DNA of 63,889 nucleotides, counting the filler, from Kipferlia bialata (Eukaryota), in NCBI GenBank assembly GCA_003568945.1. It is 6 parts of 6 records of this genome, joined end to end, with 100 filler letters (N's around TTAATTAATTAA, not from the genome) between each part and the next. Parts side by side here need not be neighbours in the genome. Positions count along the whole stretch, not along the records: positions 14,032 to 27,959 come from BDIP01000882.1; 5 more parts are not named here. One strand, 5' to 3'. Made by a program: the position numbers and the translations under genes. Below the pieces are notes generated by a model. The model did no database searches. It worked only from the letters and a program-made list of their open reading frames with translations, and had not been told where the DNA came from. Shown one piece after another: positions 1,733-42,821 of this stretch (positions within the stretch are counted from its first letter, which is position 1; each line of letters opens with the position of its first letter).

Positions 1733-1772
<40 letters not shown>

Positions 1773-13931: not shown

Positions 13932-14031
13932 NNNNNNNNNNNNNNNNNNNNNNNNNNNNNNNNNNNNNNNNNNNNTTAATTAATTAANNNNNNNNNNNNN
14001 NNNNNNNNNNNNNNNNNNNNNNNNNNNNNNN
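13932..14031. other. Artificial contig spacer (N44-TTAATTAATTAA-N44); the same spacer occurs at 27960-28059, 41988-42087, 56014-56113 and 60139-60238
   Basis: Identical 100-nt N runs with a six-frame-stop linker. Confidence 0.95.
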
Positions 14032-16404: not shown

Positions 16405-19400
16405 CTAGTCGTCAGCCACCACCACCGGGATTGCTCTAACTGTGCTGCCAACAGGACTTGAGCTATCCCACATGTTGAGCTTGAAGATCAGTGGCTTAGT
16501 CGGTTGGCAAGCGTAGTAGCCGGGCTCTCCTTCGAGGATTCCATAGTCAAAGCTGAGCTGACCGTAGACATCAACCCACCAGGTAGCAGAGGAGTCAGTA
16601 TCGACAGTGTAGATACCCGGCCCGGAGATCCACTCGAGCTGCTCCTTCTCGCCAGAGATTGACTGCCATGTACATGACGTATCAGAAGCACCGTAGCAGC
16701 ACATGATCTCAGCCTCCAGCCCCATAGAGGTGACGCCATCGATACCCTCGTCTGCATACTCCCTTACTACACGAAGCAGAGGGTCAGTATCGTCTGTGGT
16801 CCAGGTGTCTCTACCCACAGTGGCAGAGGTGTAGCCGGGGAGGAACATGGAGGACACACTGTGTGCCTTGAGGGTACCCACATCAATCATGCTGTTACCA
16901 GCAATATCTCCAACCTCAAGGGTCATCTTGTTGAGTCCCGAACAGACAGAGTCCTTGGTGAGGGTGGCAACTGTCTCAGTCGTCTGTCCATCAACAAAGT
17001 ATGCAACAGCTAGGTCAAGACTCTCAGCTGAAGAAGCAACTGTACCATAGACAGAGAGTGTACCGGTGATTGTGACACTGGTGCTAGTAAGGGTGATATC
17101 TCCACTAGCGGACTCGAGAGTGAGTCCGCTGGCAGCAGAGAGCTTCAGGTAGTCTGCACTGTAAACGGACCAGTTCTGTGTTCTACCGTCATCAAACCTC
17201 TGGATCATCAGCGTGCTACTACTGGTGTTGTCCTTGACAAAGACTCCATCAGTAGTCAGTGACATATCATAGGTGGCACCGGTAAGTGTCAGAGTGTCAC
17301 TCGACGATACTACTGAGTCAGTGAACAGTCCAGCAGAAGTGAAACCAGCGGCAAGGTTGACGGGGCTGTTGAAGGTGATTTCGGTGAAGTCACCACTGAC
17401 CGGCAGACTGACACTGGACGTGCTCATGTTACTGACCTCCATAGTCATGGTTGTGATGCCACCGTCGGCCTGGAGGGGCAGGTCGGTGTAGATGTAGCCA
17501 CTGGAGAAGGCCATGTCGCATCCACTAGTCTGACCGTCCAAGCATATTGAGGGCGTTATGCCACCTTCTGCATATATGTTCTGCGCCTCTAGCTTGCCTG
17601 TCACAGACAATGCAGAGTCGATTGTGACATACTCTGCAGAGAGTCGGAGACCAGCAGCTACGCTATTGATATCAGTGGCCATCAACATAACGTCTATGCC
17701 AGTTGCAGATTCACTTGGCATCTCAAGGACACTGAGCTTGGCAGAGTTCGCGGTGAGTGAGAGAGAGCTTGATGTAAGAGAGAGCGACTGCCCCTTAAGA
17801 GACAGACTACTCTCAGCCTCAAGCTCGATACTCATACCAGTGACGTGTGTCGTGCCGCCAGAGGTGAGCCAGGTATCCTGACTCATACTGCCGAGGCCCA
17901 AGACTTCATAGGAAGTCACGTTCCAGGAATTGGCTGTCGTGTCCTCTAGGACTCTCAAGGCACTGCTTCCACCATGTGACAGATAGAACTCAGATGCCAC
18001 AACAGCACCGAGGTAGTACCCTCCAACCACCATAGAACCGGTGGCTAGCTCAATATCACCGGTCACAACGAGGTCACCACCAACAGAAACCTCCCCAGAG
18101 GTAAACAAGACGTCGCCACTAACACTCAACGGCGCCTCAGACACTGATGACAGGACATCTACCTGGAGTGTCTGTGCCTCCAGCAGGTTGTCAATCTTCA
18201 GATTGCCAATGTTGACAGCCGTGGTGTTAAGAGACATCACTGATGTGCCACCGGTGACAGAGAGGTCAAGAACACCCGTGGCTGCAGTGCCAGTAATGGT
18301 ATCCGTGTAGAGACTGGTAGCGTGGAGATCTGAGGCTACTGTTACGTTCAGAGAGCTGACGTAGAGACTCCGGTCATCGGCAATGTTGAGATAGGCCTCA
18401 GTCTCTCTCTGAGACTCCAGAGCCACTGTGACATTCCCACCTGCACCACCAGCAGTGAATGTAAGGGGGTAGTTGTCCGAGAAGAGGACACCTCCAGCGA
18501 GAGTGATGTCTCCCCCAAAGCGGGTGTTGTCAGCGACAGCAATCTCTTCGTTAGCAGCTATGGTGACGACGTCTCCAGCTAGGGAGATAGTGGAAGCAGA
18601 GGTCACATAAATGTCACTGGAGGAGGAGAGTCCAGAGGCGTTCACGTCCATCGTAGATCTTCCATCTGTGACAGACAGTGAATCAGCAGAGAGCTGCCCA
18701 CTGACAGCCACGTCACCTCCACACGAGAGAGACCCCTCAGTCGCACTCATGGAGTATCCAGATACATCCTCCACAGCCCTTGTCTCAATGACATCACCAC
18801 CGAACCTGAGTACAATAGTATCCAAATAGATATCCTCAACCTCAGCCTCTAGTGCAGAGAGGTATGGTACATCGATATCACTAGAGACAGTAAGGGATCC
18901 CTGGATCTCCACACTGTCCTCAGCAGCAGAGAGGAGGGGAACATACACCTCCTCGACTTCAACCTTAGTAGACATGTCAAGGCCCTTCTCAAGCACTGCG
19001 GGCTCCTCCTCTTCTTTTTCAACCAGCACCCACCCCACACTGAGTGTAGAGGTGTTGAGATCGCCATTAACATCGACTGTAGAATGCTCCACATTGAGGA
19101 GAGGCACCTCAGAGAGAAGGTCTGTAGTGTCAATGGGGATACCGGCACCGGCAGAGAGAGTGCTACTATGGAGCAGAGACGCAACCTCTACATCCCCAGA
19201 CACAACAACAGCTGTGTCGTTCAGAGACATCATAGGAGTCCGGTCCTCTGCACTCAGCGAGAAGTCAAGGCTCCTGGCACCATCGGTCCCATAGATACTC
19301 GTCATAAGAGCGTCGGTCTCCACAACAAAGTACTCATCTGCAGAGACAGTCACGTTCTCAGCAGTGAAGGACATGTTGCTATCGGCATTGAGGGAGAGGT

Positions 19401-22400
19401 CGAAATCAGCAGAAACTATGAGATCGATGGATGAGTAGACCTCCCATGCCTCTGGGTTGCGATACACATCCAGGTACTCACTACTCTCCTCCAACCATAA
19501 GGCTGCTGTGTAGATCTCATTGGCGGCGAAGTCACCATCACACACGATAGCCCCATTAGCAGCCGCAAGAGGTATTGTGTCTTCCTCCTCCTCACCCTCC
19601 GCCTTGGCAGTGAGTCTCTCTCCAGAAGAGGTGTCTCTGAAGCTGACAGAGTCAACAACAGTGACACCAGCAGAGAGTGTGCCGTTGATCTCCACAGTCT
19701 CGTCCTGTGCCACAAGAAGAGGCACATACTCTGCCTCAGTAACCTCCTCTACCTTAGTAACACTGAGGACCTCCAACTCCAGACCACCGTCACCCTCTTC
19801 AGAATCAGTCTCCTCGGTAGCTATCTGTACCCAACCCACGTTGAAGCTGGTGGCATTGAGGCACCCATTGACAATAACAGTGTCATCCAGTGCACTGAGA
19901 AGGGGGGTCACCTCTACACCCTCACCCTCAGTCACTGATGGTATCTCAGCGCTCTCAGTAATGGCCACGCCATAACCGACAGAGAGGCTCTCCACATAGA
20001 GCTCACTCTCAAACACTGCGTCACCCTCAACGACAAAGCTATCATCCGCAGATACAGTCACGTTCTCACCCGTGAGGTAGAGTACACTGTCAGAGGTTAT
20101 CTCGAGGTCTAAGGAAGACTCAAGGTACCACTGAGCCCTACCCATGTAGAGGTCGAGGTAGTCTCCATCCTCACCAGACTCCAGTGAGATCTCGTTAGAG
20201 TAGACTGTTCCGTCTACGAGGAAGTCCCCATCACAGGAGAGAGTACCATCGTCAGCATACAAAGTGGCGACTACTGGTAGCTCCTCTCCACCCTCAGCCT
20301 TAGCGCTGATGTCTTCAGAGTCCCCAGAGTACATGAAGCTGACAGAGTAGAGGTAGGTGTCCTCAGCGTAGAGAGAGCCATTGACTGACACTGTATCATC
20401 CAGAGCGGACAGGAGAGGTACATACTCGTACTGGCTGGTCTCAGTCTCTCCCTTAGTGGAGGCGAGTACAGGGGCAACCTCCGCACCCTCCACCTGCACA
20501 TACCCCACATTGAATGCTGTGGTGTTGAGACACCCGTTGACTACGACAGTGTCCTCCAATGCACTTAACAGAGGGACAGAGGTGGTCTCTAGGTCCTTTG
20601 TCACGGCAAAGACCTCAAGCATCTCATCATCTCCAGATGGAATCGGGTCTACCCCAATACCCACAGAGAGGCTGTCCATCTCTACTGATGTCGGGACATA
20701 CAGGTGGTCTGCATAGAGTTCTAACATGCTACCCTCACTGGCTGCGAGGGAAAGTGTGTCCAGACCAGATCCCTCCTCGGATGCACTTACAGAGAGAGAG
20801 AGAGAGCCTGTCACTGAGGAAAGGTCTGTGTCAATCTCGAGTACAAGTGGCTGCTCAGAGGAGTGGATCCTGCTGGTGGCCACTTCCCCTTCGACACTGG
20901 CACTACCCGTTACAGTGACCCCTCCAGAAACATCAAGACTGTCTCCAGTGAGAGAGAGATTGGGAGTCCTCTCAGAGTAGCCGTTAGTGATGGCGAATCC
21001 ATCCATAACCTCTAGTGAAGAGGCCTCAAGTGTGATATGTCCTAAGGTGCTACTGGCTAGGGTGGTGATCTCTAGACGACCCATCGAGGAGTCGGGGAGA
21101 GAGAGCAATGGCTGGTCAGTGTTGATGCTGCCATTGATTGTGAGGTCACCAGAGATGTCTAGGGTCTCCATAGAGACAGGACCAGACATTGAGATGCCAC
21201 GGTCACTGACATCGAGAACACCATCTCTCACCTGGAGTGTCTGTGCTGCCAGGTCAGCCTCTACTGTCAGAGAACCCTCAACCTCTACATCATCAGCAAA
21301 GCTCACTGAGTAGCCCACACTGCCAATAGAAACTTCAGAGGCGGACTGTCCGATCAGGATACTGCCACTGGCGTCGAGTGTAAGGTCAGTAGTAGACTGG
21401 ATGGTATCGCAAACAACATTTGACGAGAACACAGTCTCATCAGCGGTGACAGCAATGGAGCCGTCCTGAATCACCACTGAGGTAGTCCCACTGGTAAGTG
21501 ACACAGTATCTGCACTGATATTCGCAACAGTCAGCTCTGTGGCAGATAGAGTGCCACCGGAGATGGTCATATCAGTTGTGGTTATGCCATCTGGTACATT
21601 CAGGGAACCAAGTATGTCAACACTCTCTGGAGACAGTGAAAGAGACACTGACTCAACGGCGAGAGAGATCAACGCCTCAGATGCAATGGCAACACCGGCA
21701 GTGGAGATCTCAACAGTGTGAGCTGAGGGAGTGGATCCACCCTCTACAACTCTGGGGTCACTGACCCCACTGACTCCAAGGGTAAGACCATCTGCCTCTG
21801 TGCCTAGGATAGTCACAGCTGTCACCTCCCCCAGCACTTCCAGCGTGTTGGATACTAGCGTGTGACCAGCACTGTGTGACAAGGACACAACCTGAGCGTT
21901 GGATCCAACAGTCACATCTCCGTTGAATCCAGTAGCTCCCTGTCCGGCATCTAGAACAAGATCTCCACCCCTGGTACTGTCACTAGCACCACCGACCACG
22001 GTCACAGTACCACCTGCGACACCGGTACCGGCAGAGCCAGCGATGGTGATATCAGTCTGGCTGGAAGAGGATGCAGCAACAGAGAGAGTCACGGGGGTGC
22101 CCTCAGTACCAATGACCAGGTTCTGGAGCAGGTGAGTATTGCCATGGGCAATCAACAGCCCCTGGCTACTGGGGTTGATCTCCACAGCTCCCTGGGAGTC
22201 ACCTGCCGCCCGCCCGCTGTCCTCAACACCAGAGAGAGTGAGAGACCCAGGGGTATCAGAGGACCCCATAGCAGAGGCAGCACTGGCCCTAGTGATAGAG
22301 TAAGTATCAGTGGCTGTTGTGGCATCGCCAAGCACAAGGTTGGCGCCAGCGTGGGTCAGAGACGAGGCCTCGAAGGTAGTGGGGCCAGTCACAGAGACAC

Positions 22401-25400
22401 TGTTGGAGAGCAGGGAGAGGTTGTTGGACACGCCTCCAATGCTCACACTAGAGGTGGTACCAGTACCAATGTAGAGTGCAGAGCCACTGGAATCCAGAGA
22501 GAGAGCGGTGTTGGCAGTGTCAATGGAAGTGCCCACCACTAGAGGCACATTGATGGTAGCACTGCCATTGAGCAGCTCAAAGCTACCACTACCGGCCTGC
22601 AGAGTAGCGTAGTGGCCGGCAGCATCTGTATCTCCCATGGAGAGAGAGACAGTGGCGAGGGTCTGCAGTGGGGACAGCGTGTACTCGCCAGAGGTGTGGG
22701 AGAGAGACCCTGCTGCAAAGACGAACCCGTCTGAGCTGGGACCCTCGGGGTAGAGGCCGAGGGTAGGAGAGAGGGTGGAACTCGTTATGGCAGCTGCATC
22801 GGTACTATCTCCAAAGTACATGGCACCATTCGATGAGAATAGTCCATCAGAAGAGGTCAGAGAGCCCACAGTGGAGGCACCAGAGACAGAGAGAGAGCTG
22901 GGGTCAACGGGATACTAGGTAGACAGTATATATATCAGTATAGGGTGAATAGTACTGACCTCACTGTAACGGAGTCCATGACAAACTCCCCAACTGAGAG
23001 TGCACCAGTCACAGACAGATCTCCAGAGACAGAGGCATCTCCACCTGTGGTTGGTGATAGTGATTATATATATATATATATATATATAGTAACGCCTTCT
23101 TCGTTTCACCAATGAGTATATGCAATAAGTACGTTGAGGCATCTCCACCTGTGGTTAGTGAAAGTGTATGATAATACCACCCGACATATATAAGAGTGCA
23201 CTGCCATCTATATAGAGAATATGAGGCAGAGGCATCTCCACCTGTGATTAGTGGACTAAACTTCTATCTGAAAACGAAGCAATGGCTGTGATTCACTCGA
23301 CCACAGAATATGCTACCATTGAAATAGATTGGTAGTAGTATACGAGGAAGAGAGAGAGAGAGAGAGAGAAAGAGAGTACCTACTAGCAGGTCCCCATCTA
23401 ACGAGGAGTCACCACCCACAGAGAGAGAGGAAGGAACACTCTTGGACCTGAGATATTAGAAAACTACGCGCTTTCAGGATGAAGCTACACGATATCAAAA
23501 CAAAGAACAACATATCCTTCACGATGAGTAACTATACCTTGTCTGAGAGGGTGTGCCTATCTGGACAGACTGGCCAGAGGGGGCAAGGGTTACAGGGCCA
23601 CCTAGAATGAGACGGAACTATTAGTACCAGATATATGTCTGGTAAAGATACCATAGACATTTTCAATTATAGGTAGAGAATGTGTACCTAATGGGTCCAG
23701 TGTGATTCCGTTATATGCCTCTAGTACATCACGTAGGTATCAATATGCAATCATGCTAAGTTGATAATCGATACCTAGTGGATCCAGTGGGATTCCGTTG
23801 TCTGCCTCCAGTCCCTATCTATATCTATCAACATATACATACATGTATATACTCAAGAGTCGAGTAAGGATATACTAACCTAGTGGATCCAGTGTGATTC
23901 CGTTGTCTGCCTCCAGTGTGAGGTCCCCCTGTGCCTGGTTGGTGATGGTCGCAGCTGGGACAAATGTGCCTAATGGTGAGATACTAGTGGTGGTAGCAGA
24001 GAGAGCGTCAAGCAGTTAGAACACACAGTTTCGTCAAATATCACATGTCTCATCGTTTGACCCTATACGTATATATAGTGTGAATTCCTGATGACATGTG
24101 TATAGATGGCACCTGACTCATCATTGGACCCCATCTGGATGGTGCAGTGGTCATCACCATCTAGCCTGGTGTTATATGTATATAATCACTTCCTAATGGG
24201 TATATAATACTATAATAGATTATATATTGTACATTCACCTAATGTATGGTATGTTCCTTGTGTTGACAATCTCCAGAGAGGCACTGGGTATCTAGTGTAT
24301 GTATAGTATAATTCTATTAGGATTAGTATATATAGTGTGTATACCTGATGTGTGGCATGTCCCTTGTCTTGACAATCTCTAGGGAGGCACTGGGCAGAGG
24401 GGTGCCGATACCCACACACTCAGAGTCTGAAGGGTAAATATGTATAAACTACCTATGTGGATATAGGAAGAGAGATAGGGAGAGAGGGCCGATACCCACA
24501 CACTCAGAGTCTCGGCATAAGTATGTATACACTTATTACATAAGCTTAGCTAGGAGAGAGAGAAAGAAAGGGAGGGAGAGAGAGAGAGATGAAACCCACA
24601 TACTCAGAGTCTGGGCATTTGGTATGAAAACACATTCAATTCTCTATATGAGCGGTAATTATATGGAGAGGGGAATATGAACCATAATTATATAGAGAGG
24701 GGAATATGCCGGACGGGCATTGTCAGTTATATACCCGGGTGACATACTGACAATGAATACCGGTATAAAAAAGATAGTATACCTGGTATGACAGTGAGTG
24801 TTTGTTCACCTCTCCTGAAACACATAGAGAAGGACGTATAGAGTATATATTCTATATATAAATATATATATACCTGGAATGACTGTCAATGTCTGCAATC
24901 TCCACTGCCGCACTGTCATCACTGACAGCCAGAGTATATAGAATACGTATATACATATACATTAGTATATATACTATATTATATACTTATATACCTGGTA
25001 TGACCGTTAATGTCTGTGCAATCTCCACTGCCGCACTGTCATCACTGACAGCAAGGGTGTAATATACACATATATTTATATTAGTATATATACTATATTA
25101 TTTACTTATATACCTGGAATGACTGTCAATGTCTGTGCAATCTCCACTGCCGCACTGTCATCACTGACAGCCAGGGTGTAATATATACTCATATATACAC
25201 GTAAGTATATGTACAACAGTAAACTTATAGAAATATATACCTGGAATGACAGTGAGTGTCTGTGCAATCTCCACTGCCGCACTGTCATCACTGACATCCA
25301 GAGTATATATAATACATATATATACATTAGTATATATACTATATTATATACTTATATACCTGGAACAACCGTTAATGTCTGTGCAACCTCCACTGCCGCA

Positions 25401-26783
25401 CTGTCATCACTGACATCCAGTATTTTGAATACATATATATATACACTAATGTATTAGTATATATATATTGTATATATATATATACCTGGTATGACAGTGA
25501 GTGTCTGTGCAATCTCCACTGCAGCACTGTCATCACTGACAGCAAGGGTGGCCAGGACAGACGACATGGACAGAACTGCAACAGCCCCTGGTATTAGACA
25601 AATCCAAAAATAGATACACATATATATTATCATATATACTGAGACAGCAAGGGTGGACAGAAGAGACGACATGGACAGCACCGCAACTGCGCCTAGTGTA
25701 AGAGTCCGAACATACATATATATATATACTGATACTGCCACTGTACCTAGGCCAATTGAGACCACGAGCAGCACCAGTACAACTGCCAGGGTGACACACA
25801 TGCACTGCGATGTCTTGCTAGAGACATGTGAAGTGTTAGTAGGAGTGTAGGATGTGGTCTGCTTGGTGGTCTCTGGGTACTCGGGAAGAGGGGCAGCCAC
25901 ATAGACCTATTATGAGTTAGAATAGAGACTATATGAAGATAGGACGAGTCATAGTATATATATACATAGACAGTATACATATCACATACAAACCTGAGAA
26001 GGAATTAGAGATACCAGAGGCACTGTAGTGACTGGGGGCTGGGGAGGCATAGATCCAACATAGTATATATCTACCTATCTATCTATCTATCTATATATAT
26101 AGGTATGTGTGTGTATATAAATCTACCTGTGGCACTGTAGTGACTGGGGGCAGGGTGGCTGGGGAGGGCATGGGTCTGGGTCTGGACCCCTTGGCCTTGG
26201 ATCCTTGCAGTGAGTACACATCTATTCTATACAAACATATATACGTATATATATAGACATACATATACATTGGAGAACATGGACCCCTTGGCCTTGCTAC
26301 CTTGCAGTGAGTGTACACTGAATAATACACCAGGGTATATGCATATATACACACTCATATACATACATATCCTTAGGGTATGGGTCTGGGATTCTGTACA
26401 CACATATATATACCCTTCTTTCTGGCCATCGGCATGAAAATTGTAAATACTCTCAAATAGTAACGACACAATGGTATTTATGTATAAATATAAATATATA
26501 TATATATATATCCATACCCTTCTTTCTGGCCATCGGCATGGGCAGTGATGAATTCCTACAAACAATACAACTGATCACTCTTTTAGTTATACGAATAGTT
26601 ATAGCTCTAGTTCTCACCCTTCTTTCTGGCCATCGGCATCGGCCTTGGAAACAATATGAAAATAATAGACTTGCATATGAGTACAGTATCAGCATCATAT
26701 AGTACATACCCTTCTTCCTGGCCATGGGCATTGGCATGGGCATTGGGAGTGGAGATGATGCCGCTGAGAGAGGGGCCTATACC

Positions 26784-26814
<31 letters not shown>

Positions 26815-27690
26815 TAGTATGTATGATCCTTATTAATCTCACCCTTCTTCCTAGTCATCGGCATTGGCATTGGAAGTGGAGATGATGCAGCTGAGAGAGG
26901 GGCCATTGGAAGAGCACGACCAACACTAGGGGTCAGTCAAGGTAGAGAGACTCTGAGAGTGTATACACTATAGTATATATATATATATATATATATATGC
27001 ATAACATTGGAAGAGAATTATAGATTATAGAAAACAGTCCAATACTATGGGGAGAGAGTGCTTCTGCCCATAGTAACTACATATCTAATATCTTCATTAT
27101 CTACACATAGACTCTAACCTGGGTGACGCTCTGTTGTTTCCTCTCCCCACACTGGGTGAGTCTCACACTCTTCAATAGAAATATTGTTCATATAGTATAA
27201 AGTATAGTATAAATAGTATTCATATATTGTATGTATATATATACATGTACTCCTGACTGTTTTGAGTATATTCCTACCTGGGTGAAGCCCTTTCCCGTCT
27301 CTAGTGAGACTCATAGTATATATAGTACACACATTTCTATACACACACACATATATATATAGATACCAACCTGGGTGAAGCTCTGCTGTTCCCCCTGCCC
27401 ACACTGGGTGAGGCTCTGTTGTATGGTACTGTGGTGACAACAGCTCTCCTATTGTAAGAGTGGATGTACCTATATATATATGGGTGGGGATACAAAATAT
27501 TTCCATTACCATTAATGACAGGTATATTTATATATATACCTAGTCTGCACAGGTGGCAGGGGACTAGACACAGGCAAGGCCACGGGCTTAGGCATAGGAA
27601 GGGGGAAGGGCATGTTGCCACTTTTGCCCTTCTTGGCACTCTGCTTCTGCACTATCTGGCTTTGGATAGTGAAGACATCATCCCTGAAGT
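16405..27690 (-). CDS. Giant (>2,400 aa) type II membrane protein with a beta-strand-rich, acidic, tail-fibre-like ectodomain; 5' end probably incomplete
   Basis: The terminal exon of about 6.5 kb (ORF 16405-22869, acceptor near 22898) is S/T/G/V/D/E-rich with repeats. Small upstream exons encode a Pro/Lys-rich N-terminus (PLPMPMPMTRKKG), one hydrophobic segment (CVTLAVVLVLLVVSIGLGAVAVL, about 25550-25800) and the motif VGIGTPLPSASLEIV. Confidence 0.8.
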
Positions 27691-27915
27691 GAGCTGCGTA
27701 TTTACATTTGCATGTAATAACTACTGTGATTTAACAATCTGACTCTACTAGTAGAGAGTAAGACATCATCTGTGGAGTGAGGTACGAATGAATTATTCCT
27801 TACATGTATATAACTGGGAGCGATGCCTGTTCAAAGAGATAGGGATACAGTATCAGTATCAGTGAGAGAGTCGTTCCAACTCCTGTTTAATGGGTATGGA
27901 GATGGAGAGAGAGAT

Positions 27916-28565: not shown

Positions 28566-30365
28566 TTACTGCTGTGGGATGGGCTCAGTCTCAGCCTCTG
28601 CCTCTGCCTCTATCTCTGCCTCCTCCCCCCTCTGTGCCTGCAGTCTCTCCCTCTCGTCCCCAGGCAGCAGGGCCCAGATGGCATCGGGGATGGACGGGCG
28701 CTCCTTGGTGCCCTGGGGTCAGAGAGGAGGCAGAGGAGACACTATGCACACACACGTGAGATCAATACCAATGCATCTCTGCCATACCTCAGCATACACA
28801 TTCTCCCAGAAGAGCGACAGCTTGTCCAGCTCTGCCGCCTCAAAGGCTAGGATGGAGTCGCTGGTATAAGGGACAGGTAGGTATACACATGCACCTATCC
28901 TCATATCACTCTATACACAACACCCATACCGAGTCTGGCTGTACCAGCTGTCTGCCCAGCAGTACAGCTTGGCGTGGTATGTGACGAAGTTGTTGAACAT
29001 GGCCTTCTGGACACTGTTCTTGGCAACCCTGAGGATAAGGGTGAATAGATATAATATACATGAGCATGTATAGACACTGACACTGATACTGTTCTTGGCA
29101 ACTCTGGCGGTGAGAGGATGGGTATATATATATATATCATGAGTGACTATGTCGTATATATGCATGTCCCCTCACCTTCCGAGCCCCATGACCTTGAGCT
29201 CAAACTTGACCAGCTTGTACACAGTCACGCAGGGGGTGCAGGTGGACTGGGGTGGGGGGTGACTGAGAACTATGAGGATATGAATATGGCCATAGTATCT
29301 ACTCACCTCCCACCCCTTAGTGCTGACTGGCACTCTCTGGGCAAGCTCAGGGGTGGTGAAGGTCTGCCTGAGGTAAGGGTAACGAGGAGAGAATAATAAT
29401 AATACTATGAACCTGGTACTGGGTGATGGAACAATCCCAATACGAGTATCTACACCGATAGGAAACATCACTCAACTAATCGAACGAAACAGAGATAATG
29501 ACACCACGTACTTGCTGGGGTCTATGTCGTCCCCGTGGTGGGATGCGATGTCGACAGTGTATCTCTGCACAGTGGCTAGCTCGGCCTGGGGGTCAGGGGG
29601 AGATGCGTGTAGGAAATGATACATACATATTACATATAGTGACATGCCTCTGACAGGTTGAATGGGTTTGCCGTGTCTCTGTCCTGGCCCCTGTCCCCGT
29701 CTATCAGTCTGGTGTGCAGCTCAAAGGTCAGCTTCGACTTGAGGAAGGGGGAGCTCAGCTTGTTCACTGGGGTGAGGGGGAGGAAAGTGCACCACTAGAA
29801 TATGTAATGTATATACTTCCTCCGTACCGACGTGTGTGGATGCGTTGATGCAGAACTCGTTGACGAACCTGGCCCTGGCTGGCATGATCTTGGTCACCTT
29901 GCCTAGGGTGAGGGAGAGAGGCTAGATGGGAGTGGGGGTCACTTTAGATAGTGTACAGAGTAACATGTGAATGCACTGACTCACCCTTGGGCAGGTGGAT
30001 CCTCTTGAATGTAAGCCGGGCATCCCTGTCCTCGTGTCTGATGCCAACCTGGGGGAGGGGCGGGGGAGAGAGTATGCATAGAAGAGTGTGGGGTTAAGGG
30101 GTTGGGGGGAGGGGGGCTATTCAGAGCGTCATTAGCTGGTATGAATTGACCGTTCTCCCCTCTTTTGCAATCAATCCAGTATACACAAGCATATAGAGTG
30201 CACTAGGCATACACATGTAGCTAACTGACTCACATTGACTATGGGCTCGATCCCCTCTGCACTGGTGCTGTCCTCAAGGGAGGCCCTGGCCACCATGTAG
30301 TGGTGCCCCCTGTCGGTCTCAGCAGCGGTCAGGGGGAGCGTGATGGCATACTGGAACAGATACAT
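28566..30365 (-). CDS. Phosphatidylinositol transfer protein (IP_trans/PITP family), multi-exon
   Basis: The N-terminus MYLFQYAITLPLTAAETDRGHHYMVARASLEDSTSAEGIEPIVN matches the PITP pattern EYRI.LP....EY.....YMVA..S.E....GEGVE. Later exons read TVYKLVKFELKVMGLG and NNFVTYHAKLYCWADSWY (cf. F..FHRQ.FCW.D.WY). Confidence 0.85.
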
Positions 30366-30549
30366 CGCAGCAGGTAAAGAGACAGGGACGTCAGTGCAGA
30401 GTCTCAAAGGGTTGCTACTCTGAACCCTCATTGAGTTGTCTGTGACAAAAATCCTGGACCAAACTTAGCCCAACTTGACCGTCTCTCATACATAGCAGGC
30501 AGGGTAGGCGCACACACACTCAAGGAGGGATTGAGAGCTCTGCGAGCAG

Positions 30550-33500
30550 ATGCCCACGCCTGGGGCTACTCCCACCAGGGAGAGGGAGAAAGCTAGAGCG
30601 AGGCGGCGGCGACAGGGGAAGGCGGCACCCAAGGACTCTAGCAGTCGCACCCCTGTGCGCCGTGTGACATCAGCAGATGGGCCTCTATCGATGGGGTCGA
30701 TATCCAGGGACCTTGCAGTCAATGTCAGCAGGGAGCACGACTCCTTCCGAGAGGGCACAGACGATGAGGCAGAGGGGACAATTCTCAGTAACTACAGGTT
30801 GGGGGCTTTATTTGTAATGGTATTGTAGGGAGAGAGTAGAGGGGGGGGGGGTGCGAGTGGTGTCTGTTTGCTGTATTATGGTGGTGGGTGTGTATGTAGT
30901 AGCGTCGAATCGTGCCTCTCTCTCTCTGTAATTTCAATGGTATTTGATGCCACTACTATTTCTGATACCATACACACAACCACACCCTCCCTCACCACCC
31001 GTGGTGTTGTGAGTAACACCATCTGGTCCTCACATGTTGTTGTTATATATGGCATTGTCTCCCTCCCCTCTCCCCCCCTCTCCCACCCCAGACATGTCTA
31101 TGTGAGGAAGTCCAAGAGAAGCACCAGCCAGCTAGGTGGGTGTATGTGTATATTCCAGTGTCCATATGCAGACTCAGTGTGTGTGTGATTCGATATATGA
31201 TGTCAGAAGTGATGGAGGGATAGTAATATATGTAGTGTATTTCTATCAAGCCTCTCTCGCCATCCCATCGTCCCTCACCCTCAGGCACCCGCCGTGTGCC
31301 CAGTCCCCGGCATGAGGAGGGACAGATAGAGCTGGCACCGCTGCACAGGTCATTCACAAGGTGGGAGCATGTGTAATTGTGTATGTTGTTGGTCCAACGC
31401 TTGTTACCATTGTCATTTGCTATATAACTCTGTCACTTACCCCAGGGGAGAGATGCTTGGGATAGAGAGACCCCCTCCAATGTCATCCAGTACACAGGGT
31501 ATGGGGATGCATCTCAATATGCATCATGTCTGTCAGTCTCAGTGTCTATATACAGTCACAATGAACACACTATATTTCTTTCCTGACCCCTAGGCCATGG
31601 CCACCGCACCCTGCTGGATGCCCTGACTCCCTCTGGCCTGACACCCACCCATGGGGGGCCCAGGACCCACACCTCCCCCACCTCCATGTCCCCCACTTCA
31701 TCCACAGACATGACAGAGGGCATGACAGAGGGCATGACAGAGGGCATGATGCTGGTGGGGGAGGCATCCCCAACGCCACAGGTACAGTGTGTATATATAT
31801 ATACCCTATTGATATACATATATGTATATATACATCAATACTGATGGCCTGATGCTGGTGGGGGAGGCATCACCCACGCCACAGGTACAGTGTATATAGA
31901 TGACATATACAGATTGGTGTATGTACATGACATTGACCCCCCAGACCTGGACCCCTGCCCTCCATAGGGCACAGAGGGCCAAGGACAAGGCACGGGAGAA
32001 GGCCCGGAAGGGACACAGGGCAGTCGGGGCATCACCCCACCACCCATTCGGGGACTCGCCAACCAGGTACTGCATAGATATAGATACATAAGTATGAGTA
32101 TGTATGTATATACGTGAGTATACCTGACCCCCCAGGGCCAAGTCCAGACACAATGCCCGCAACACCATGTTCAGCCAGCACATGAAGAGTAGGAATGACA
32201 TGACATCTACTAATGAGAGAGACAGACAGGAGAGGGAGAGGGAGAGGGAGAGTGTGACGAGGGATGCTGGGAGTAGGGGTTGGGACGGGAGGGAGAGAGA
32301 GAGTGAGATTGCCAAGGTGCTGAGGGAGAGAGAGAGGGAGAGAGGCGGGACACCCTCCCTGACCAAGGGAGAGAGGGAGAGAGACCGGGTGACGGTGTCT
32401 GCCCATGGAGAGCATCCGCTGGTGTCTCAGTCAAACAGAATCAGGTGGGTGGTGTGTTCATTAGTGGTATATGTATGCATAAGCTATATGTACTGACTTC
32501 AGGGCCAAGACTGGCATTGGTGGCCAGCGTGGCACCCCCTCTGTGACATCTACTCCATCTGTGACAAGGCAGAGGGGGGCTAGGGACACAGCGGGCACAG
32601 GCACTGAGGCCCGGCCCCCCTCCCCTCCCCCTGTCAATGAGGCCCTGTCTCTACTAAGGAGACTGGTGTCAGACCAGGCAAAGAGAGACAAGGTGGGGGG
32701 TGAATATATGTAATATGTCCATTGACCATTTATCCATCGTTTAGTTGTCCTCACCCCCAGTATGTGGACCCTCTGTTCAGCGCTGATGACGGTGCCCCAG
32801 CTGGACGGGACCAGCCACTAGTCAACCAGCAGCCATCTGCACCCTCAGATGCTATCAATGCCAGTGCCAATGCCAGTGGTAGTGGCATAGTGACTGATAG
32901 TAGGGGTGTGGGTGTGCACACACCCTCAGGGCCAGTTGTCGATGGGTCAGGGGCTGTCCTTAACCCCGACGACGCAGCATTCCTGGAGGGCAGGGTGCCA
33001 TTTGGACTCGAGTCACTCTCAGAGGTATATTCTACAGTGGTGCATACTATAGTACCTGTGCATCCGTTGATTCCTCTCCCCCCAGGTTGATGACGTACTG
33101 TCTAGTAGTATACTATGATTGTGTCAAGTGTGTATCCTCCTTTCCCCCCAGGTAGATGCGTACTGCCTTGTGCTGGATGAGGTCATGGCCAGGAGTCAGG
33201 CCCTGGACAGCCAAGTATTGGATAGGGTCAAGGCATACTTCCTAAAGAGACTACACAGGTGGGGGGTGGATATCTAGTATTGTCATGTATGGTACTGGCT
33301 CTGCCTATACATTCCTATCCATTGTGTGGTTTATATGTATATGCATTGTAACAGTTGTAGTTGTGGTTTCTCACCCCAGACAACCCCTTGAGATCCGAGA
33401 GTTGAGACGAGTATTGGACCGAGTGGAGAACCAACTCAGCAGTGAACAGGTGAGGATATGTGGCTTGTGGTATATGGCCCATTTTCTTGTCTCTTCGATA

Positions 33501-36500
33501 GTCACCCCAATCTCGTAGATTTGTAGTTGTATTAACATCTCATGTATGTCCTCACCCCAGGCCGGTCACCGGTCCGAGAGGTCCCAGCGGGAGAGGGTGG
33601 AGATGGAACTGGGTCACATGAGGTAGCAATATTTCAAGTACTGCATTTACAGTACCCCCCCCCCCCATCTCACCCCCCAGGTCGACTGTGACCACGCTGC
33701 GTGGTGATCTGTCTGGTGCGACCAAGGAGAGAGACAGCCTGAGGGGGGAGAACGAGGGGATCAAGGCAGACCTCCAGATGCTCAAACAGAAGCTGGACAC
33801 GTACGTGCAGTAATATACAGAATGATATATAGCAAGTATTGGATACCCTCTTCCACCTCCCTCACCCCCAGACTAGGCATGGAGGCCGAGCACCTGCGGC
33901 ACGAGAACAGTCTGTTGGTGTCTAGGAATACGAGTCAGACTGAGACCCTAGTTAGTGTGAGGACAGGGGGGGAGACCACACTCGACACACTCCACAACAC
34001 GTGCATAGAGAGGGACGGTCTGATAGAGAAGGTCATGAGACCCCTTGCTGAACTAGCAGCACCAGTCTTTGTCTCACCATTTACATCCCCCTCACCCCCT
34101 AGGTAGCCAAGGTTGAGGCCGCCCATGCCGCCCTATCCTCCGAACTGGCAGACGAGAAGGACAAGCACGCAGCCCAACTCGCGCAGAAGCAGGTGGGGCC
34201 AGTGGTTTCATATATCATTGCCAGATGCATACTTGCGATATGTTCCCCACCCCCCCATCCTCACCCCCAGAGTCTCTTGGCCAGTGAACAGCTGAGGGTG
34301 GCCACGCTCACTAAGGTAGGATGTTGTGACATTGTCAAACTGTTGAAACAGAGAGGGTCGTAATGTGTTGTCATCTCACCCCTTCAGGACCTGGCCGAGA
34401 TGCGGTCCAGACCCCCTGTGCAGAAGATAGTGTACATGCAGGCCAGAACAAGGGTCGAGAGCGCAAAGGTATACTCATGTATATATGTATACATACACCA
34501 TTAGATTTGTTTTGTTTGTGTACATGTGCTATACTTTGCTACCTCCCCCATCTCTGTCTGACCCTTAGGAGAAGGCCAAGCCCTCCACCCCCCAGGCCAA
34601 GAAGGGAGAGCCAACACGAGATGCCTCAGTGCAGACCAGACGACCAATGGTGCCCAGCGCGTCAACAGCACAGCTCAGACAGCAGGTATGGGAATATGGA
34701 TATACTATTCTAATTATTTTCAATATGCAGTGACATGACCCCCTCTAACCTTCAGGCCCAGGACAAGAAGAGGGAGAAGGAGAGGGAGAGAGAGAGGCAG
34801 AAGGAGAGGGACGAGATGGCCAAGGAGCGGGAGAGGGTGGCCAACCTCCTCAACACAGCAGAGATAGCCAAGGAGGCTGGGGAGATTGCACTCGAGGAGG
34901 CAAAGGCTCTGCAGGTGTGTGTTTATGTATGCTAGTATATACATATACACATATATTTTTATATTTGTATACATTTGTGTGTGTATACCTCCCCTCCCCC
35001 TGACCCCCAGGCGGATGTGTCTGAGAGGGAGGCAGACATGGAGGCAGACATGCTCAGAAAGACACAGGTACCTGGGGTTGGAATACTATGCATCCTTACT
35101 GATATTTGGTCTCACACTATTATGCATACCCTCACCCCTAGAACCTTGAGGCAAGGGAGAGAGACATGGCGTCTGAGAGACAGCGGCTGGAGGCCAGACT
35201 CGCCTTGGTTGAGAAGGAGAGGGAGGGATTCAGGGAGCAGGACAAGCTGTCGAAGGCCCAGTCTCTCAAGCAAATGGAGGGAATGACGTCTCCTAGGTAT
35301 GGTGCATCATATGTGTATACATATACTGTACCATGTCTATTACTGTACTTGTATATCTCCACCCCTCTCTCACCCTAGGACTGTGAGCAGACTGCAGCGT
35401 GACCTACAGGCAGCCAAGGACGCCCTGTTACAGGTGGGTACATCCTACTTTATACATACACTCATGATGCCCATATATACCCCCCCCCCCTCCCCTGACC
35501 CCAGGCCCAGCAGGACAAGCGGGATGTGTCAGCCGAGCTGGACTCTGTCCAGACCACATCCTCCAAGGACCTGGCCTCACTCGCAGCCAGGCAGATGACA
35601 AAGATACAGGTGGGTGGTATATTAGTATATTTTCATTGTAAGGCATGTGCTAACCTTAGGACCTCCGCAACTCCCTGACCGCTGAGCACGAGGGTGTCAT
35701 GACACAGAAGGACAAGGAGTACAAGGAGAGGGAGAAGGTACGTGGTGTGTGTGTATGTGTGTATGTATAAGTGTATCATAATAGCTACTTCATCGCCCCC
35801 ACCCCCCAGGTTGCTGAGATGGAGAGGGATGCCGAGATCAGAAGAATGAAGGAGGAGCATTCACTGATGAAGCAGGGCCTGGTCAGGAAGGACAGGTGGG
35901 TGGGAGTGTGTACATACATTCGAGATATATATGTATCTGTAGCATGTCTCCCTATTGTATATATATATATACCTGTCTGACCCCCAGGGAGCAGGCTGCC
36001 ACCATCGCCTCTCTGACCGAGGAGGTGTCCACACTCACAGCAAGGGCAGACGGGTTCAGGTGGGGTGGGGTGTTTGCGGGGAGTGTATTCTCTATGAGAT
36101 AATGAAGTGAGGGACAGTATTCATTACATATGTGTGCAAGGGCACACGGGTTCAGGTGGGGGGGGGGGGGGGGGATACGTAGAATGGATAGTATAAGAGA
36201 AGGTNNNNNNNNNNNNNNNNNNNNNNNNNNNNNNNNNNNNNNNNNNNNNNNNNNNNNNNNNNNNNNNNNNNNNNNNNNNNNNNNNNNNNNNNNNNNNNNN
36301 NNNNNNNNNNNNNNNNNNNNNNNNNNNNNNNNNNNNNNNNNNNNNNNNNNNNNNNNNNNNNNNNNNNNNNNNNNNNNNNNNNNNNNNNNNNNNNNNNNNN
36401 NNNNNNNNNNNNNNNNNNNNNNNNNNNNNNNNNNNNNNNNNNNNNNNNNNNNNNNNNNNNNNNNNNNNNNNNNNNNNNNNNNNNNNNNNNNNNNNNNNNN

Positions 36501-38024: not shown

Positions 38025-39445
38025 CATATGTATGCAGCCTGTGCACCTTGAGGGCCTTGTGGGGCAGGACCATGGCAGCCCTCACCACAGTCTCATCCTC
38101 GACATGCACATCCTAAGGGGTCAGGGACAAGGGTGGAGCAAGACAGAGGGTGTGGATGAGAAGAGGCGTACTCGTTGCATGTCACCAACTTCTCATACTG
38201 CACAATATAAATACAACAGTAGTCATCCGTGTCCATACCTCCCCCAGGACCGACATGTCACACACATGGGACCACCCCCCTAGGCTGCAGTAGGAGCCTA
38301 CGATGCTGGGGTCAGTGGCAGTATCAGGGTATGTAGTGTACACTATCCATACAATCACCCACCCCTAACTATCAGGGCCAGTGTCATATATATATCATAT
38401 ATATATACCTCCCCCCACCTGTGTGTGACGCATAGTGGTATAGTTGGAGAGTTGTATAGATGTGTATATGTACCAACATACTTATCTGTCACGCATAGGT
38501 TTCTGTATGTACATTTATATGGGTATGTATATATATATGGGTATATACATATATATGGGTATAGTATATATATGGGTATATATGACCCATGTGTATGTGC
38601 ATACCTGTCTGTGACGCATGCATGGCCACCCACCGTGGTGCAGGGCATGATGACAGACCGACGCACCCTGGCACCCTGGCATCAGGAGCATAGGTGTATG
38701 AGGTGTAATAGGTGTCATGGTTATCATGGGTATATCAAGACAGGTATGGATAGAGAGGGGGAGGGGATGATACAGCGACAGACATGTGAAACAGACGCGT
38801 GTACAAGGGTCAGTCGTATACACTGATAGATACACATTGGCATATGCTGACCCGCCCCCTGATACCCATCCGTGTTGCATACCTTGACCACCGTGGCCTG
38901 TCTCCCCAGCGTGGCGTAGGGCCCGATGACGGCACCTGGGGGGTAGGGGAGATAGGATGGGTATGATGGGCATGATGGGTATGATAGGTATGATGGGTAT
39001 GGTCTGAAGGGCATGTCAGGGGATATACTGGTACGAGGTCGTCCATAAACACGCCCATAGACACGCTCCCAATGAGGCCAATACACATATATACGTGTAC
39101 CCATACCCCCACACACCCACCCACCTGGCTCGACCCTAGCCTCGGGGTGTATCAGACAGGGAGGGATGACTCTGAAGGTCCCATCGCCTGCACTGCTAGC
39201 GACATCATGGCCGTCCTGGGAGTATGAGTATCATAGTATGAGTATCATAGTATGAGTATCATAGTATAGTCAGAGACATGCACACACACACAGGCATGGA
39301 TAGAGTATACACATACACATTGGTACCTCTCCGTTGTCTGTGTCCCTAGGCAGTATGGCACCCTCTCTCAGGTGGTTGTGCTATGGTCAGACGGCATACA
39401 CACTTGTACACACACTCAAATACCTATATATATATATATATGAAT

Positions 39446-39480
<35 letters not shown>

Positions 39481-41860
39481 ACTGTAACACCACTGCCCTG
39501 ACCTGGCTGTCGTAGTCTAGCTGCATCTGCACGGCGGCCAGGAAGTCATCTGGCTTGCCTATGTCCTTCCACATCCCTGGGGTGATGATATGGTATGGTA
39601 TGGTATGATATGATGATGATATGATGATGATGGTATGATATGATGATGATGGTATGATGATTGTATGATAAGGATATGGTATGGTATGATGATTATGGTA
39701 TGATATGATGATGATATGATGATGGTATGATATGATGATGGTATGGAGGGGACACGCACAGGGTATGTGTAGTGTATACACGTGACACTCCTACCTCTGG
39801 CACGTGGAGATATACCAAACCAGTATCAGTATCCAGTGAAGATAGGCATAGCACTCAGTAGGAATAGCCCTATATAAGAGATTATCAGACACTGAGTGTA
39901 TGTGCAACAAGCCCCCCCACCCCCACCCCTACCTGTGTGCTATATATATATATACCTGTGTGCTGGTAGCAGTACATCTCCCCCTTGGCAGCCACCCTTG
40001 GGAATATCTCTCTCTCCATGCTGGTGGGCTTGAGCTGGGGTGGGGGACGGGTACTTGTATACACATACAGGGAGTTGAGGTCCCACCTTGCCCATGTCCA
40101 TACTTGTACATGTGTACATCCGCATATAGTATAGGTATGTATATAATGATACCTTAACCATATCCAGCACTGACGGCTCTATGATGTACACACCCCCATT
40201 GATGAGGTTGCCAACATACGTCTGGGGCTTCTCGACAAACCTAGGGGGTAGGAACATACCAACACAACCAACAACAATCATGATAGCAGATACACACTCT
40301 GCCAGCAGAAGCACAAAAGTAGTGGAACTACTCAGTATACAAATACACTTCTCTATTAATACTATTGACATGCAATACAGGGGGTTGAGGGGACCTAGAG
40401 ACTGTCTTGTTCTGCTCAGAGGGTATACATACATACATATATACACATCCATATATACCTAGACACTGCGTTGTCCTCGTCACACACTATGACGCCAAAG
40501 CGGGACGGGTCTTCGACACTGGTGCCCATGATTGATATCATACCTGGGGGGGGAGGACACACATACACGACAGGGAGGTACATGTGTATACATATACATG
40601 TACATATATATAAATGAGAGAGACACGGAGGGCCCCGGCTGTCCTCACCTCCCTTGTCCCTGTGGAACTGGATCATGGCCTCGAGGGGGTAGTCGCAGAT
40701 GACATCGCTGGGGTCAGGGGTGCATGTAGTATGGGGCATATGATATATATATATATATGATATATGATATATATATATATGAATGGACATGGGAATATGG
40801 GATACAGGCTGTATATGATATGATTCAGGTATAGGACATGGGACATGGCATCAAGACGACCAGAGTGACAATCCACATCCATGCACCCTTGGCCCCATCA
40901 ATCTCAGAATCAATCTCAGAATCAATCTCAGAATCAATCTCAGAATCAATCTCAGAATACATCCCTGTACCTGTCTCAATACATGTCTCAATATATACCA
41001 CCACACCTGTTGCACACAAAGAATGGCTCTGCCTCGGCCCCGTTCTCCGGCATCAGGAGGGGTCTGGCCAGGGCTAGGGGGCCTCCTAGGGATTGGGAGT
41101 ATGGGGAGAGAGTCCAAAGAGGATCAGAGGGGAGAGAGGGATAAAGAGAGAGAGAGAGAGTCAGCAGACGGTGTGGATAGCACCCAATGGCACAGTGACA
41201 CTTTGTCTGAATATATATAAATATACACACATGATCTGTATATACATATATATATATATATATATGCATACATACCTGTCCCTAGAGGCTTTGGCTCGAT
41301 AGAGGACACAATCTTGACATTGTACTGGTCCTCCCACTTGCTGACATACCCTGCCGTAAGTACCCTGACATACAGTATCACAAGACAATGGGTGATTAGG
41401 CAGTGATTATAATATATACATGTATATATAGAGAGAGAGACAGATGATAAGGCGTGTTGAGTATCGTACACACGAGTGAGTGATATACAACAGTGAGGTG
41501 GGATATATGGACCGAAACATAACCAAGTGCCCCTGTCACTGTCACCCACATAGAGACATAGAGACATAGATAGGATACGCAGAATGAGGGACCGATGGTC
41601 ACACTCACCCTGCAGGGTCTGGGGGCAGTAGGACACGGCCAGGATGATGTCGGTCACACCCACACCGGCCAGGGCAGCTATCTGGAGCTGGGGTGGGTAA
41701 CGGGGGGGGCAGCATGGGTCCACTCAATCATAGTATAGTCATATACATACGATATAGCATAAAGTGTATACTGTATAGTATGCATACTGATACCTCAATC
41801 ATGGGTGTGTTGCAAAACTCAATGAGGGGCTTGGGGACAGTGATGGTCAGGGGGCGTAAC
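37640..41860 (-). CDS. GMPPB: Mannose-1-phosphate guanylyltransferase (GDP-mannose pyrophosphorylase); first exon(s) missing at the contig edge
   Basis: Exons read RLRPLTITVPKPLIEFCNTPMI, DIILAVSY, EPKPLGT/GGPLALA, EPFFVCNSDVICDYPL, VEDPSRFGVIV, RFVEKPQTYVGNLINGGVY, TSMEREIFP and GMWKDIGKPDDFL. The hexapeptide tail ends ...VLPHKALKESIWEAQIVM*. Confidence 0.93.
39580..39745. repeat. Intronic (GAT/GGTAT/ATG) compound microsatellite
   Basis: Visible run of gatgat/ggtatg units inside a GMPPB intron. Confidence 0.85.
40897..40958. repeat. Intronic 12-bp minisatellite (atcaatctcaga)x5
   Basis: Perfect tandem copies in a GMPPB intron. Confidence 0.9.
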
Positions 41861-42217
41861 CTGAGGTCATAGAAGTGGAGAGGCCTGGGTCTGGGTATAC
41901 ATCTATATACACCCATACACATATATACCGATACAATGAGGAGAGCAACGGGGGGGGGGGGGGGGAAATTCATAAAATTTGTTTTTTNNNNNNNNNNNNN
42001 NNNNNNNNNNNNNNNNNNNNNNNNNNNNNNNTTAATTAATTAANNNNNNNNNNNNNNNNNNNNNNNNNNNNNNNNNNNNNNNNNNNNTGACTGACAGTCT
42101 CTCTCTCTCTCTCTCTGTCTCTCTCCCCCCCCTCTCTTACCCAGACACCGACTCCCTGTCTGACAGTCTCTCTCTCTCTCTCTCTCTCTGTCTCTTTTTC
42201 TGCCCTCTCTTACCCAG

Positions 42218-42771
42218 ACACCGACTCCCTGTCTGGCACCACCGACAGTGCCGCAGCAGCCACAGCCATATCGACAGGGCAGAGGGTGCAGAACGGGAGG
42301 TTGGTATATACTATATCCCCTCCAGTTCATGTCTTCCCCAATTGTGTCTGCTCTATGTACATTGCAAAGTGTGTCTATCAAGTGTCTGACTCCTGTCTCT
42401 GATACTGGACTCTGACCCTTCAGACTGAACTCCTCTGTGCAGTACCCCCAGGACTATGAGACACTGTTGCAGTACTTGACAGACACAGAGGGGGGGAGGT
42501 ATATATGTATAGAGAGAGCGTATATATAGTACATAAAGGGAGAGACTATTACAGTACCTGACAGACACAGAGGGGGGGAGGTATATATACATATGTAGTG
42601 TAGTATAATACTTCACATATATGATCAGAATGGTTGAAAGAGAGATACTTTTACAGTACCTGACAGACACAGAGGGGGGGGATCAGGTGAGTTTATGTAC
42701 TGACCCCAACTTGGTAGTTACTTACTGGCAGAGACTACCTCACCGGTGTTATCTCCAAGACAGACGTCATC

Positions 42772-42821
<50 letters not shown>

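Follow-up and report, generated by a model that had tools for sequence, protein, structure and literature searches.

Copies of exon ends that lie inside introns are not expected to retain the signature of a protein reading frame. An intron of the Kipferlia bialata gene for the hypothetical protein KIPB_004215 holds a tandem array of copies of the preceding exon's end, and the question raised by this locus is how coding constraint came to be recorded in sequence that appears to be untranslated. We denote as an echo any intronic copy of an exon end with its GT donor, or of an acceptor with the start of the next exon, and as live the sites and exons that are copied. All counts come from one 64-kb window (63,889 nucleotides (nt)) composed of six K. 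bialata contigs joined by N-linkers with a stop-codon spacer (at 13932, 27960, 41988, 56014 and 60139), with an extra N gap in the third contig (36205-36808). At many splice sites in this window, a reading-frame signature is retained beyond that left by copying followed by decay, and, whichever route produced them, the copies are very probably duplicates within introns that past coding constraint has shaped.

A tandem array of exon ends in the focal intron

16405..27613, minus strand: host gene, K. bialata hypothetical protein KIPB_004215, 2502 amino acids (protein match)
25486..25587, minus strand: live exon with echoed 3' end, 102 nt, phase 1-1 (RNA contig 25488-25586 joined to the upstream exon; in the database protein)
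24427..25485, minus strand: focal intron, 1059 nt, with six donor and two acceptor echoes (join across it taken from the database protein)
25360..25420, minus strand: donor echo 1, TTA ACG type, with A>D, I>V and I>V (junction with the live spacer bridged by DNA contig 25391-25520, depth 404)
25241..25304, minus strand: donor echo 2, CTC ACT type, with A>D (DNA contig 25145-25275, depth 441)
25114..25178, minus strand: donor echo 3, TTG ACA type, protein identical to the live end over 21 codons (sequence)
24995..25059, minus strand: donor echo 4, TTA ACG type, protein identical to the live end over 21 codons (DNA contig 24955-25046)
24874..24935, minus strand: donor echo 5, TTG ACA type, with a 2-nt deletion (DNA contig 23384-24923, depth 490, 0 gaps)
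24783..24808, minus strand: donor echo 6, short, CTC ACT type (sequence)
24591..24610, minus strand: far acceptor echo of the next exon's start (sequence)
24488..24510, minus strand: near acceptor echo of the next exon's start (sequence)
24345..24426, minus strand: next live exon (protein model; RNA contig over 24344-24406)

The live exon (25587-25486) ends in CCA G|gt, with the donor after 25486, and is followed downstream in the intron by six head-to-tail copies (Tandem Repeats Finder: period 119, 5.8 copies, score 823, far beyond chance). The initial annotation had listed five copies. These five, which repeat the last 61-65 nt of the exon with a GT of their own, end at 25360, 25241, 25114, 24995 and 24874, and their codon strings and that of the live exon end were quoted exactly, but the count was short by one, as there is a sixth, 26 nt long, with its end at 24783. 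Two copies (those ending at 25114 and 24995) do encode TLAVSDDSAAVEIAQTLTVIP by different codons, and the 2-nt deletion assigned to the last listed copy is present at 24874, where the DNA contig carries it. The description of the copies as differing by synonymous codons holds for most changes, the exceptions being A>D in copies 1 and 2 and two I>V changes in copy 1; by eye, the variants over 64 nt comprise about ten silent alleles, these three missense changes and one frameshift.

Comparison with assembled reads covered positions 22500-26300 of the window, and its results refer to the contigs listed, in which repeats are partly skipped and rare forms dropped. In the DNA run (X1), contigs cover the live end, the spacer and the start of copy 1 (25391-25520, depth 404), copy 2 into copy 3 (25145-25275, depth 441), copy 4 (24955-25046, depth 835, or 576 after correction for shared words) and copies 5-6 with their flank (23384-24923, depth 490), each with 0 other letters, and the unique flanks of the array have a depth of 443-490. 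Because these contigs bridge two unit junctions at flank-like depth, the array is real, with copies that lie head to tail at single-copy depth and do not collapse to one per haplotype, the outcome that the initial annotation had named as fatal to its proposal. Haplotypes or paralogues stacked in tandem by the assembly are accordingly a scarcely credible explanation: the DNA run is possibly the source data of the window itself and hence not independent, and no single contig among those listed runs over the whole array, but separately assembled contigs link the live end to copy 1 and copy 2 to copy 3, and include copies 5-6, at single-copy depth.

The mean column identity of the array units is 81%, short of the near identity of minisatellite units, and the copies are mosaic. 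Thirteen of 66 column pairs are four-gamete incompatible, some of them 6-11 nt apart, and three Leu-Thr haplotypes (CTC ACT, TTA ACG and TTG ACA) are shuffled against 5' and 3' variants. Divergence does not follow distance from the live copy: the most diverged echo is the one closest to it. The intron-side identity of copies 1-5 (0.67-0.77) places them among the better-matching echoes, and copies 2-5 share roughly one start point, so that the founding junction was probably single and re-used. The ACCCT at which echoes start (25173-25178 and 25054-25059, minus strand) matches the letters directly before the intron's real acceptor (24430-24435), a match that could represent microhomology for a founding event in which the exon end and nearly the whole intron were duplicated.

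Codon-level signature in echoes across the window

A repeat scan of the window yielded 116 local pairs, most of them at splice sites by our reading. We identified 44 echoes (26 donor and 18 acceptor) at 25 of 27 splice sites that were hand-picked for repeats and therefore give no frequency estimate; the score threshold was 11, at which the other two sites have no echo. The set excludes other weak echoes noticed by eye and a donor echo of ambiguous status around 61030-61120, and a control match with a score of 36 was rejected as an artefact of an arbitrary exon-1 start. The exon-like part of the echoes is 13-65 nt long (median 29), and the intron part of the units has a median of 68.5 nt (minimum 35), vs. 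a median of 74 nt in echo-free introns (n = 15). Echo spacing is narrow (median 103.5 nt), dividing intron length by one plus the number of echoes gives 80-118 nt for the seven introns where echoes are strong, and unit lengths are multiples of three in 17 of 44 cases, without enrichment. The density of echoes is uneven: they occur in 8 of the 10 introns examined in the host gene (strong in seven, weak in one), compared to two echoes in the gene at 31600-36200, where 15 introns were measured as echo-free.

Of the 102 distinct variants at the 25 splice sites, 61 fall at third codon positions (P = 4 × 10−8). Variants occur at 44 of 498 zero-fold sites and 40 of 140 four-fold sites, which gives a ratio of 0.31 (bootstrap over sites, 0.23-0.48), vs. 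4.0 and 2.3 in the two wrong frames. The ratio is 0.29-0.37 over six parameter sets, 0.29-0.34 when one site is left out at a time, 0.34 when the focal array is dropped, 0.30 for the other genes by themselves, and 0.31 with only the nearest echo per site. None of the 44 amino-acid changes is a stop codon. Base composition was ruled out as the cause of the silent bias (0.077 vs. 0.293 at AT sites, and 0.098 vs. 0.280 at GC sites). The focal array itself has 5 variants at 42 zero-fold sites vs. 8 at 13 four-fold sites (tested against neutrality, P = 0.004, which is optimistic because the array was selected for its bias). The proposal that echo diversity arose under protein-level constraint is supported, as far as tested, in other echoes of the window as well as in the array for which it was made.

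Neutral decay of the copies, for which the expected ratio is 1, is excluded. Simulated copying followed by decay, analysed with the same detector, yielded ratios of 0.56-0.58. By our reasoning, a single lineage averages a ratio of at least 0.5, because one copy is coding at any time in a clonal lineage, and exchange between the live copy and an echo does not lower it. The observed ratio is below both values (P = 0.019 vs. 0.5, and P = 0.004 vs. 0.57).

Identity across the splice junction

The identity of donor echoes to the live junction is 0.88 over the last 12 exon bases and 0.94 at the GT, which is retained in 24 of 26 echoes (6 of 6 in the focal array). In the intron, it is 0.64 at +3 to +6 (background 0.39; 0.55 without the focal array), 0.53 at +7 to +12 (background 0.34), and 0.36 at +13 to +24 (background 0.30). 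Acceptor echoes show an identity of 0.94 in the exon, 0.70-0.76 in the branch region and 0.44 farther out, with the AG retained in 17 of 18. When gaps are allowed, intron-side identities average 0.62 and 0.61 vs. backgrounds of 0.57 and 0.55, and the intron side exceeds the 95% background in 7 of 44 units (4 of 26 donor and 3 of 18 acceptor). The exon side of the echo at 23775 differs from the live copy at 1 of 38 nt, yet identity falls right after the GT. A fresh tandem duplication would match on both sides of the splice site, and the observed drop from exon to intron looks like the profile of orthologous junctions.

Splice site choice in echo-bearing introns

The RNA run (X2, classified as RNA by the tool's guess) has contigs of depth 3-5 with GT-AG joints on the minus strand. 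These joints skip 25587-25745, 24165-24343, 23969-24111, 23600-23877 and 23446-23535, and a loose contig end connects 26203 with the previous exon at its live end, not at an echo, and skips the echo at 26300. Two further features are required here:

25643..25692, minus strand: 5' half of the live exon echoed as an acceptor copy within the upstream intron, complete with an AG and a branch-like motif (passed over by RNA joint 25586-25746)
26204..26842, minus strand: intron carrying five echoes, four of donors and one of an acceptor (outermost sites, first donor and last acceptor, joined in RNA)

Overall, the first donor and the last acceptor are used in five of the eight echo-bearing introns of the host gene, the focal intron not being among the five. 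In four neighbouring introns that carry donor echoes, splicing starts from the most upstream donor (one echo is weak and one join comes from a loose end, at depth 3-5), and the distal acceptor is used, with the upstream copy skipped, in joint 25586-25746 (past 25692) and at the loose end at 26204 (past 26300). No echo forms a new spliced intron, all of them sitting inside single introns of the database model and the RNA joints. Array copies 1-6 have no RNA contig coverage, which is not evidence of silence because rare forms are dropped and repeats partly skipped. Given that splicing takes the first donor, the array copies are likely to be unspliced and silent. The earlier impression that the copies look untranslated agrees, as far as tested, with the skipping of echoes in RNA and with the database protein, which skips the array; the focal intron itself would follow the pattern of its neighbours.

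At 24 of the 26 live acceptors that were usable out of 35 (the other nine positions, mistyped by about a base, were left out), a YTNAY motif ends 4-7 nt ahead of the exon. The array contains 45 AGs, 43 of which have no such motif, in agreement with the initial annotation, which had seen no branch point and AG in front of any copy, but the other two do have a branch-like YTNAY at 4-7 nt: the AG at 25445, which is out of frame, and that at 24851, which is in frame before copy 6. An in-frame acceptor with its own branch motif thus exists for one of the 45 AGs and serves copy 6 only. The contention that internal AGs would shift the frame proved wrong, in that 10 of the 45 give in-frame mini-exons, e.g., of 33 nt (VEIAQTLTVIP-type) in copies 1-4. 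The arrays constitute a natural test of splice-site choice, won by the first donor and the last acceptor, in a short-intron protist with a reduced spliceosome (87 of 174 proteins searched; PMC6679479).

Origin of the echoes

The array is built of ~120-nt duplications of the exon end, the GT donor and ~60 nt of intron, likely silent under first-donor use, and we consider the chances to be even that the copies were mostly templated from divergent alleles. From the observed anatomy, single-copy DNA depth, codon bias, mosaic copies and use of the outermost sites nearby, we infer the following repair route. A break or mis-registered exchange near the exon end would be repaired from the homologue, leaving two junctions in tandem. 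Products with one splice site would survive, with the outer site in use, making the event nearly neutral; products with both splice sites would create a mini-exon and be removed, which would cap the unit at about one intron plus part of the exon. The median intron part of the units is close to the length of an echo-free intron, which we counted in favour of capture from an allele. Unequal exchange inside the exon-like part would add exon ends and both expand and shuffle the array. Under this scheme, the two copies would have been coding on different chromosomes during most of their divergence, and decay, such as A>D and the 2-nt deletion, would have occurred after capture only. In fornicates, neither non-homologous end joining (NHEJ) nor Rad51A is present, Dmc1 occurs as two paralogues (PMC8516963), and mismatches are tolerated by Dmc1 (PMC7809202, PMC6719624); this background makes the repair route plausible and is not evidence for it. 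The wider proposition that Kipferlia introns grow in ~100-nt steps by capturing working junctions of deeply diverged homologues through Dmc1-based repair, and so form an archive of former alleles, is more tentative, and we would put it at less than even.

Several observations weigh against templating from alleles. The margin under 0.5 is modest (P = 0.067 with the focal array excluded, 0.076 for that array by itself, and 0.34 for acceptors only), two laxer mismatch settings give P = 0.06-0.09 vs. 0.5, and the amino-acid changes are barely more conservative than random (P = 0.066). For the host gene, the reading frames were taken from the database protein; elsewhere they are our own models, with Pfam backing in three genes. 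Detection through exon-side similarity, together with slippage in TA-rich DNA, inflates the contrast between exon and intron, and the 7 of 44 units that match closely on the intron side imply that same-chromatid duplication also occurs. The listed DNA contigs, with 0 other letters, contain no second allele, and a metagenome scan for the exon motif returned 0 matches. Templating from alleles further needs alleles ~20-30% apart at four-fold sites with introns nearly unalignable; a four-fold allelic divergence of 20-30% is at the extreme of known diversity.

Same-chromosome duplications made at different times, after which the live copy changes silently, the echo decays and TA-rich spacers mutate faster, would need neither sex nor extreme diversity and would alone account for half of the silent bias. 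Some units are near-exact and match on the intron side too, the array contains missense changes and a frameshift, and the bootstrap interval reaches 0.55 without the focal array, all as expected from such a history in a clonal lineage. However, this history predicts a ratio of ~0.57 vs. the observed 0.31 (P = 0.004-0.02), identity falls directly after the GT even at the echo at 23775, and the nearest echo in the array is not the least diverged; we therefore regard it as unlikely.

Two other routes both appear improbable. Selection could be ongoing if repeat collapse or conversion put echo ends into the live exon often enough, in a huge population or through a programmed DNA step, to purge missense echoes. 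The mosaic copies do indicate exchange with the live end, repair in this group proceeds by homologous recombination, with single-strand annealing among its forms (PMC8516963), and a human junction duplicate in CBS has been proposed as a template for changes in the live exon (PMC2630376). Nevertheless, the array units are at unique-flank DNA depth (404-490), which implies that no collapsed form is common, the contigs listed, with repeats partly skipped, include no hybrid joint between live end and echo, the frameshifted copy persists, and, by our reasoning, an adequate collapse rate would leave echoes too short-lived to diverge. Alternatively, the echoes may be former or occasional in-frame mini-exons, translated as peptide repeats, whose acceptors were later lost. 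With both copies coding together, this would give a ratio under 0.5, intact GTs and intron-sized unrelated spacers without recourse to alleles; 10 of the 45 array AGs are in frame, and the host protein holds a translated repeat, RASPSVGR, twice with different codons. Against such mini-exons, one alone of the 10 in-frame AGs has a branch-like motif at the usual spacing, the RNA joins that bridge echoes all leave them out, unit lengths are divisible by three at chance level (17 of 44), and echoes also occur in enzyme-like genes (phosphatidylinositol transfer protein (PITP) and alkaline phosphatase), which are unlikely to tolerate peptide repeats.

Recursive splicing, with AG|GT echoes as ratchet points that remove the long intron in ~120-nt steps, is very hard to credit: all six copies end in CCAG|GT with a YTNAC 11 nt upstream, and the intron length per unit is regular in seven introns (80-118 nt), but the branch spacing of 11 nt is not the 4-7 nt of live acceptors, several echoed donors have no terminal AG, and such a process would not keep codon meaning over 60 nt.

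Comparison with known junction duplications

Junction-spanning duplications with silent pseudo-sites are already known at single loci, and in the literature searched we found no paper on the codon signature. Intron 7 (IVS7) of human F7 contains a 37-bp variable number tandem repeat with 5' pseudo-sites, of which the most upstream donor is used (PMC1557585). As in Kipferlia, the first unit spans the exon-intron boundary and intact downstream donors are normally silent; the F7 pseudo-sites are described as identical minisatellite units at one locus, whereas the Kipferlia units are ~120 nt long, include up to 65 nt of exon, differ mostly by silent changes, have poorly related intron parts and occur at 25 splice sites in 64 kb. 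The human CBS allele c.[833C;844_845ins68] is a 68-bp duplication of an intron/exon junction in which the distal site is used (PMC2630376). There, too, two copies carry different alleles and gene conversion with live exons has been proposed, but 844ins68 is one polymorphism with one nucleotide difference, with neither an array nor a codon-level signature. Intron gain by tandem duplication likewise involves a duplication that crosses the intron-exon boundary; it creates a new intron, whereas in Kipferlia an existing intron is lengthened, with no new exon in RNA where the echoes are bridged. Introner elements are similar in being intron-like inserts with flanking duplications at many sites, but their target duplications are 3-9 bp long (PMC9860276), compared to the 13-65 nt of duplicated exon in Kipferlia, which sets the echoes apart from introners. 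The main text of that introner paper does not mention Kipferlia, and no introner-like insert family stood out among the repeats of the window. The main text of the Kipferlia genome paper contains no mention of duplication, ploidy or heterozygosity, and the literature searched, subscription journals and supplements being outside its scope, contains no description of Kipferlia echoes or of a codon signature in junction copies.

If the copies are allelic, one genome records past population variation and recombination. We know of no demonstration of sex in this lineage. Capture from diverged homologues would, if true, amount to sequence evidence for cryptic sex or hybridisation and for extreme diversity in a free-living fornicate, would link the loss of NHEJ and Rad51A to gene structure, and would represent a route of intron growth not yet described, with three Leu-Thr codon haplotypes archived in this array alone and alleles archived at a large share of the genome's splice sites.

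The host gene and other features of the window

Published K. bialata gene models were made by AUGUSTUS with transcript hints on a short-read assembly (PMC5874029), so that the model of the host gene is itself predicted. Over the 400 residues searched, the long downstream exon matches KIPB_004215 at 100% identity, and our 11-exon model agrees with this protein over 330 aligned residues. KIPB_004215 has a single hydrophobic helix near the N-terminus and a long C-terminal part rich in Ser, Gly, Thr and Val, and is likely a surface protein. No Pfam family matches it above threshold, the sole match being a sub-threshold one to Bactofilin (E = 0.035). An open frame and an echoed acceptor at 27660-27790 (minus strand), 5' of the database start, suggest that the gene starts farther 5' than annotated.

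The intron at 25588-25746 (minus strand, 159 nt) is stop-free in frame and opens with GTVAVS, resembling GAVAVL of the next exon, which may reflect an origin of the intron through duplication of an AG|GT exon segment. The acceptor echo at 26300 (minus strand) makes a perfect AG|GT site and reads GGT AGC where the live exon (26203) reads GGA TCC; both encode Gly-Ser, with the serine codon family swapped.

At 22500-22762, DNA depth is doubled (852), and an RNA contig of depth 92, vs. 3-5 elsewhere, is identical over 263 bases before diverging into sequence whose translation matches a paralogue, P0003 (KIPB_014727). This shows recent conversion or exchange, or a chimeric duplication, between diverged paralogues. 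A second RNA contig matches 26171-26203 (33 nt, exon 2), with both flanks unlike the window, at a depth of about 90 from bins, similar to that of the paralogue's transcript. P0003 is the only shorter relative found; it is partial, with 36% identity in the best alignment, and the focal exon is outside its coverage. A query with the read-through open reading frame for a source of the array found nothing.

Echoes occur in several other intron-rich genes: one resembling PITP at 28800-30400 (minus strand), one resembling nucleotidyl transferases (mannose-1-phosphate guanylyltransferase-like by our reading) at 38280-41900 (minus strand), and one resembling alkaline phosphatase at 42140-43600 (plus strand). 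Pfam supports alkaline phosphatase (E = 3 × 10−8), PITP (E = 8 × 10−4) and NTP transferase (E = 0.006), the latter two below the curated cut-off; five other exons had no Pfam match.

A tRNA-like 5' half lies at a contig end (14032-15720, minus strand), with at least five look-alikes of its first 15-18 nt upstream, 160-660 nt apart; ARAGORN predicted 0 tRNAs, this half included, and the look-alikes may represent either a tRNA-derived repeat or the echoes of a non-coding gene. Finally, a small gene at 421-2200 (plus strand), saposin-like by our reading of its cysteine pattern and without Pfam matches to its single exons, carries five acceptor echoes and several donor echoes, and the changes in its acceptor echoes are nearly all silent.

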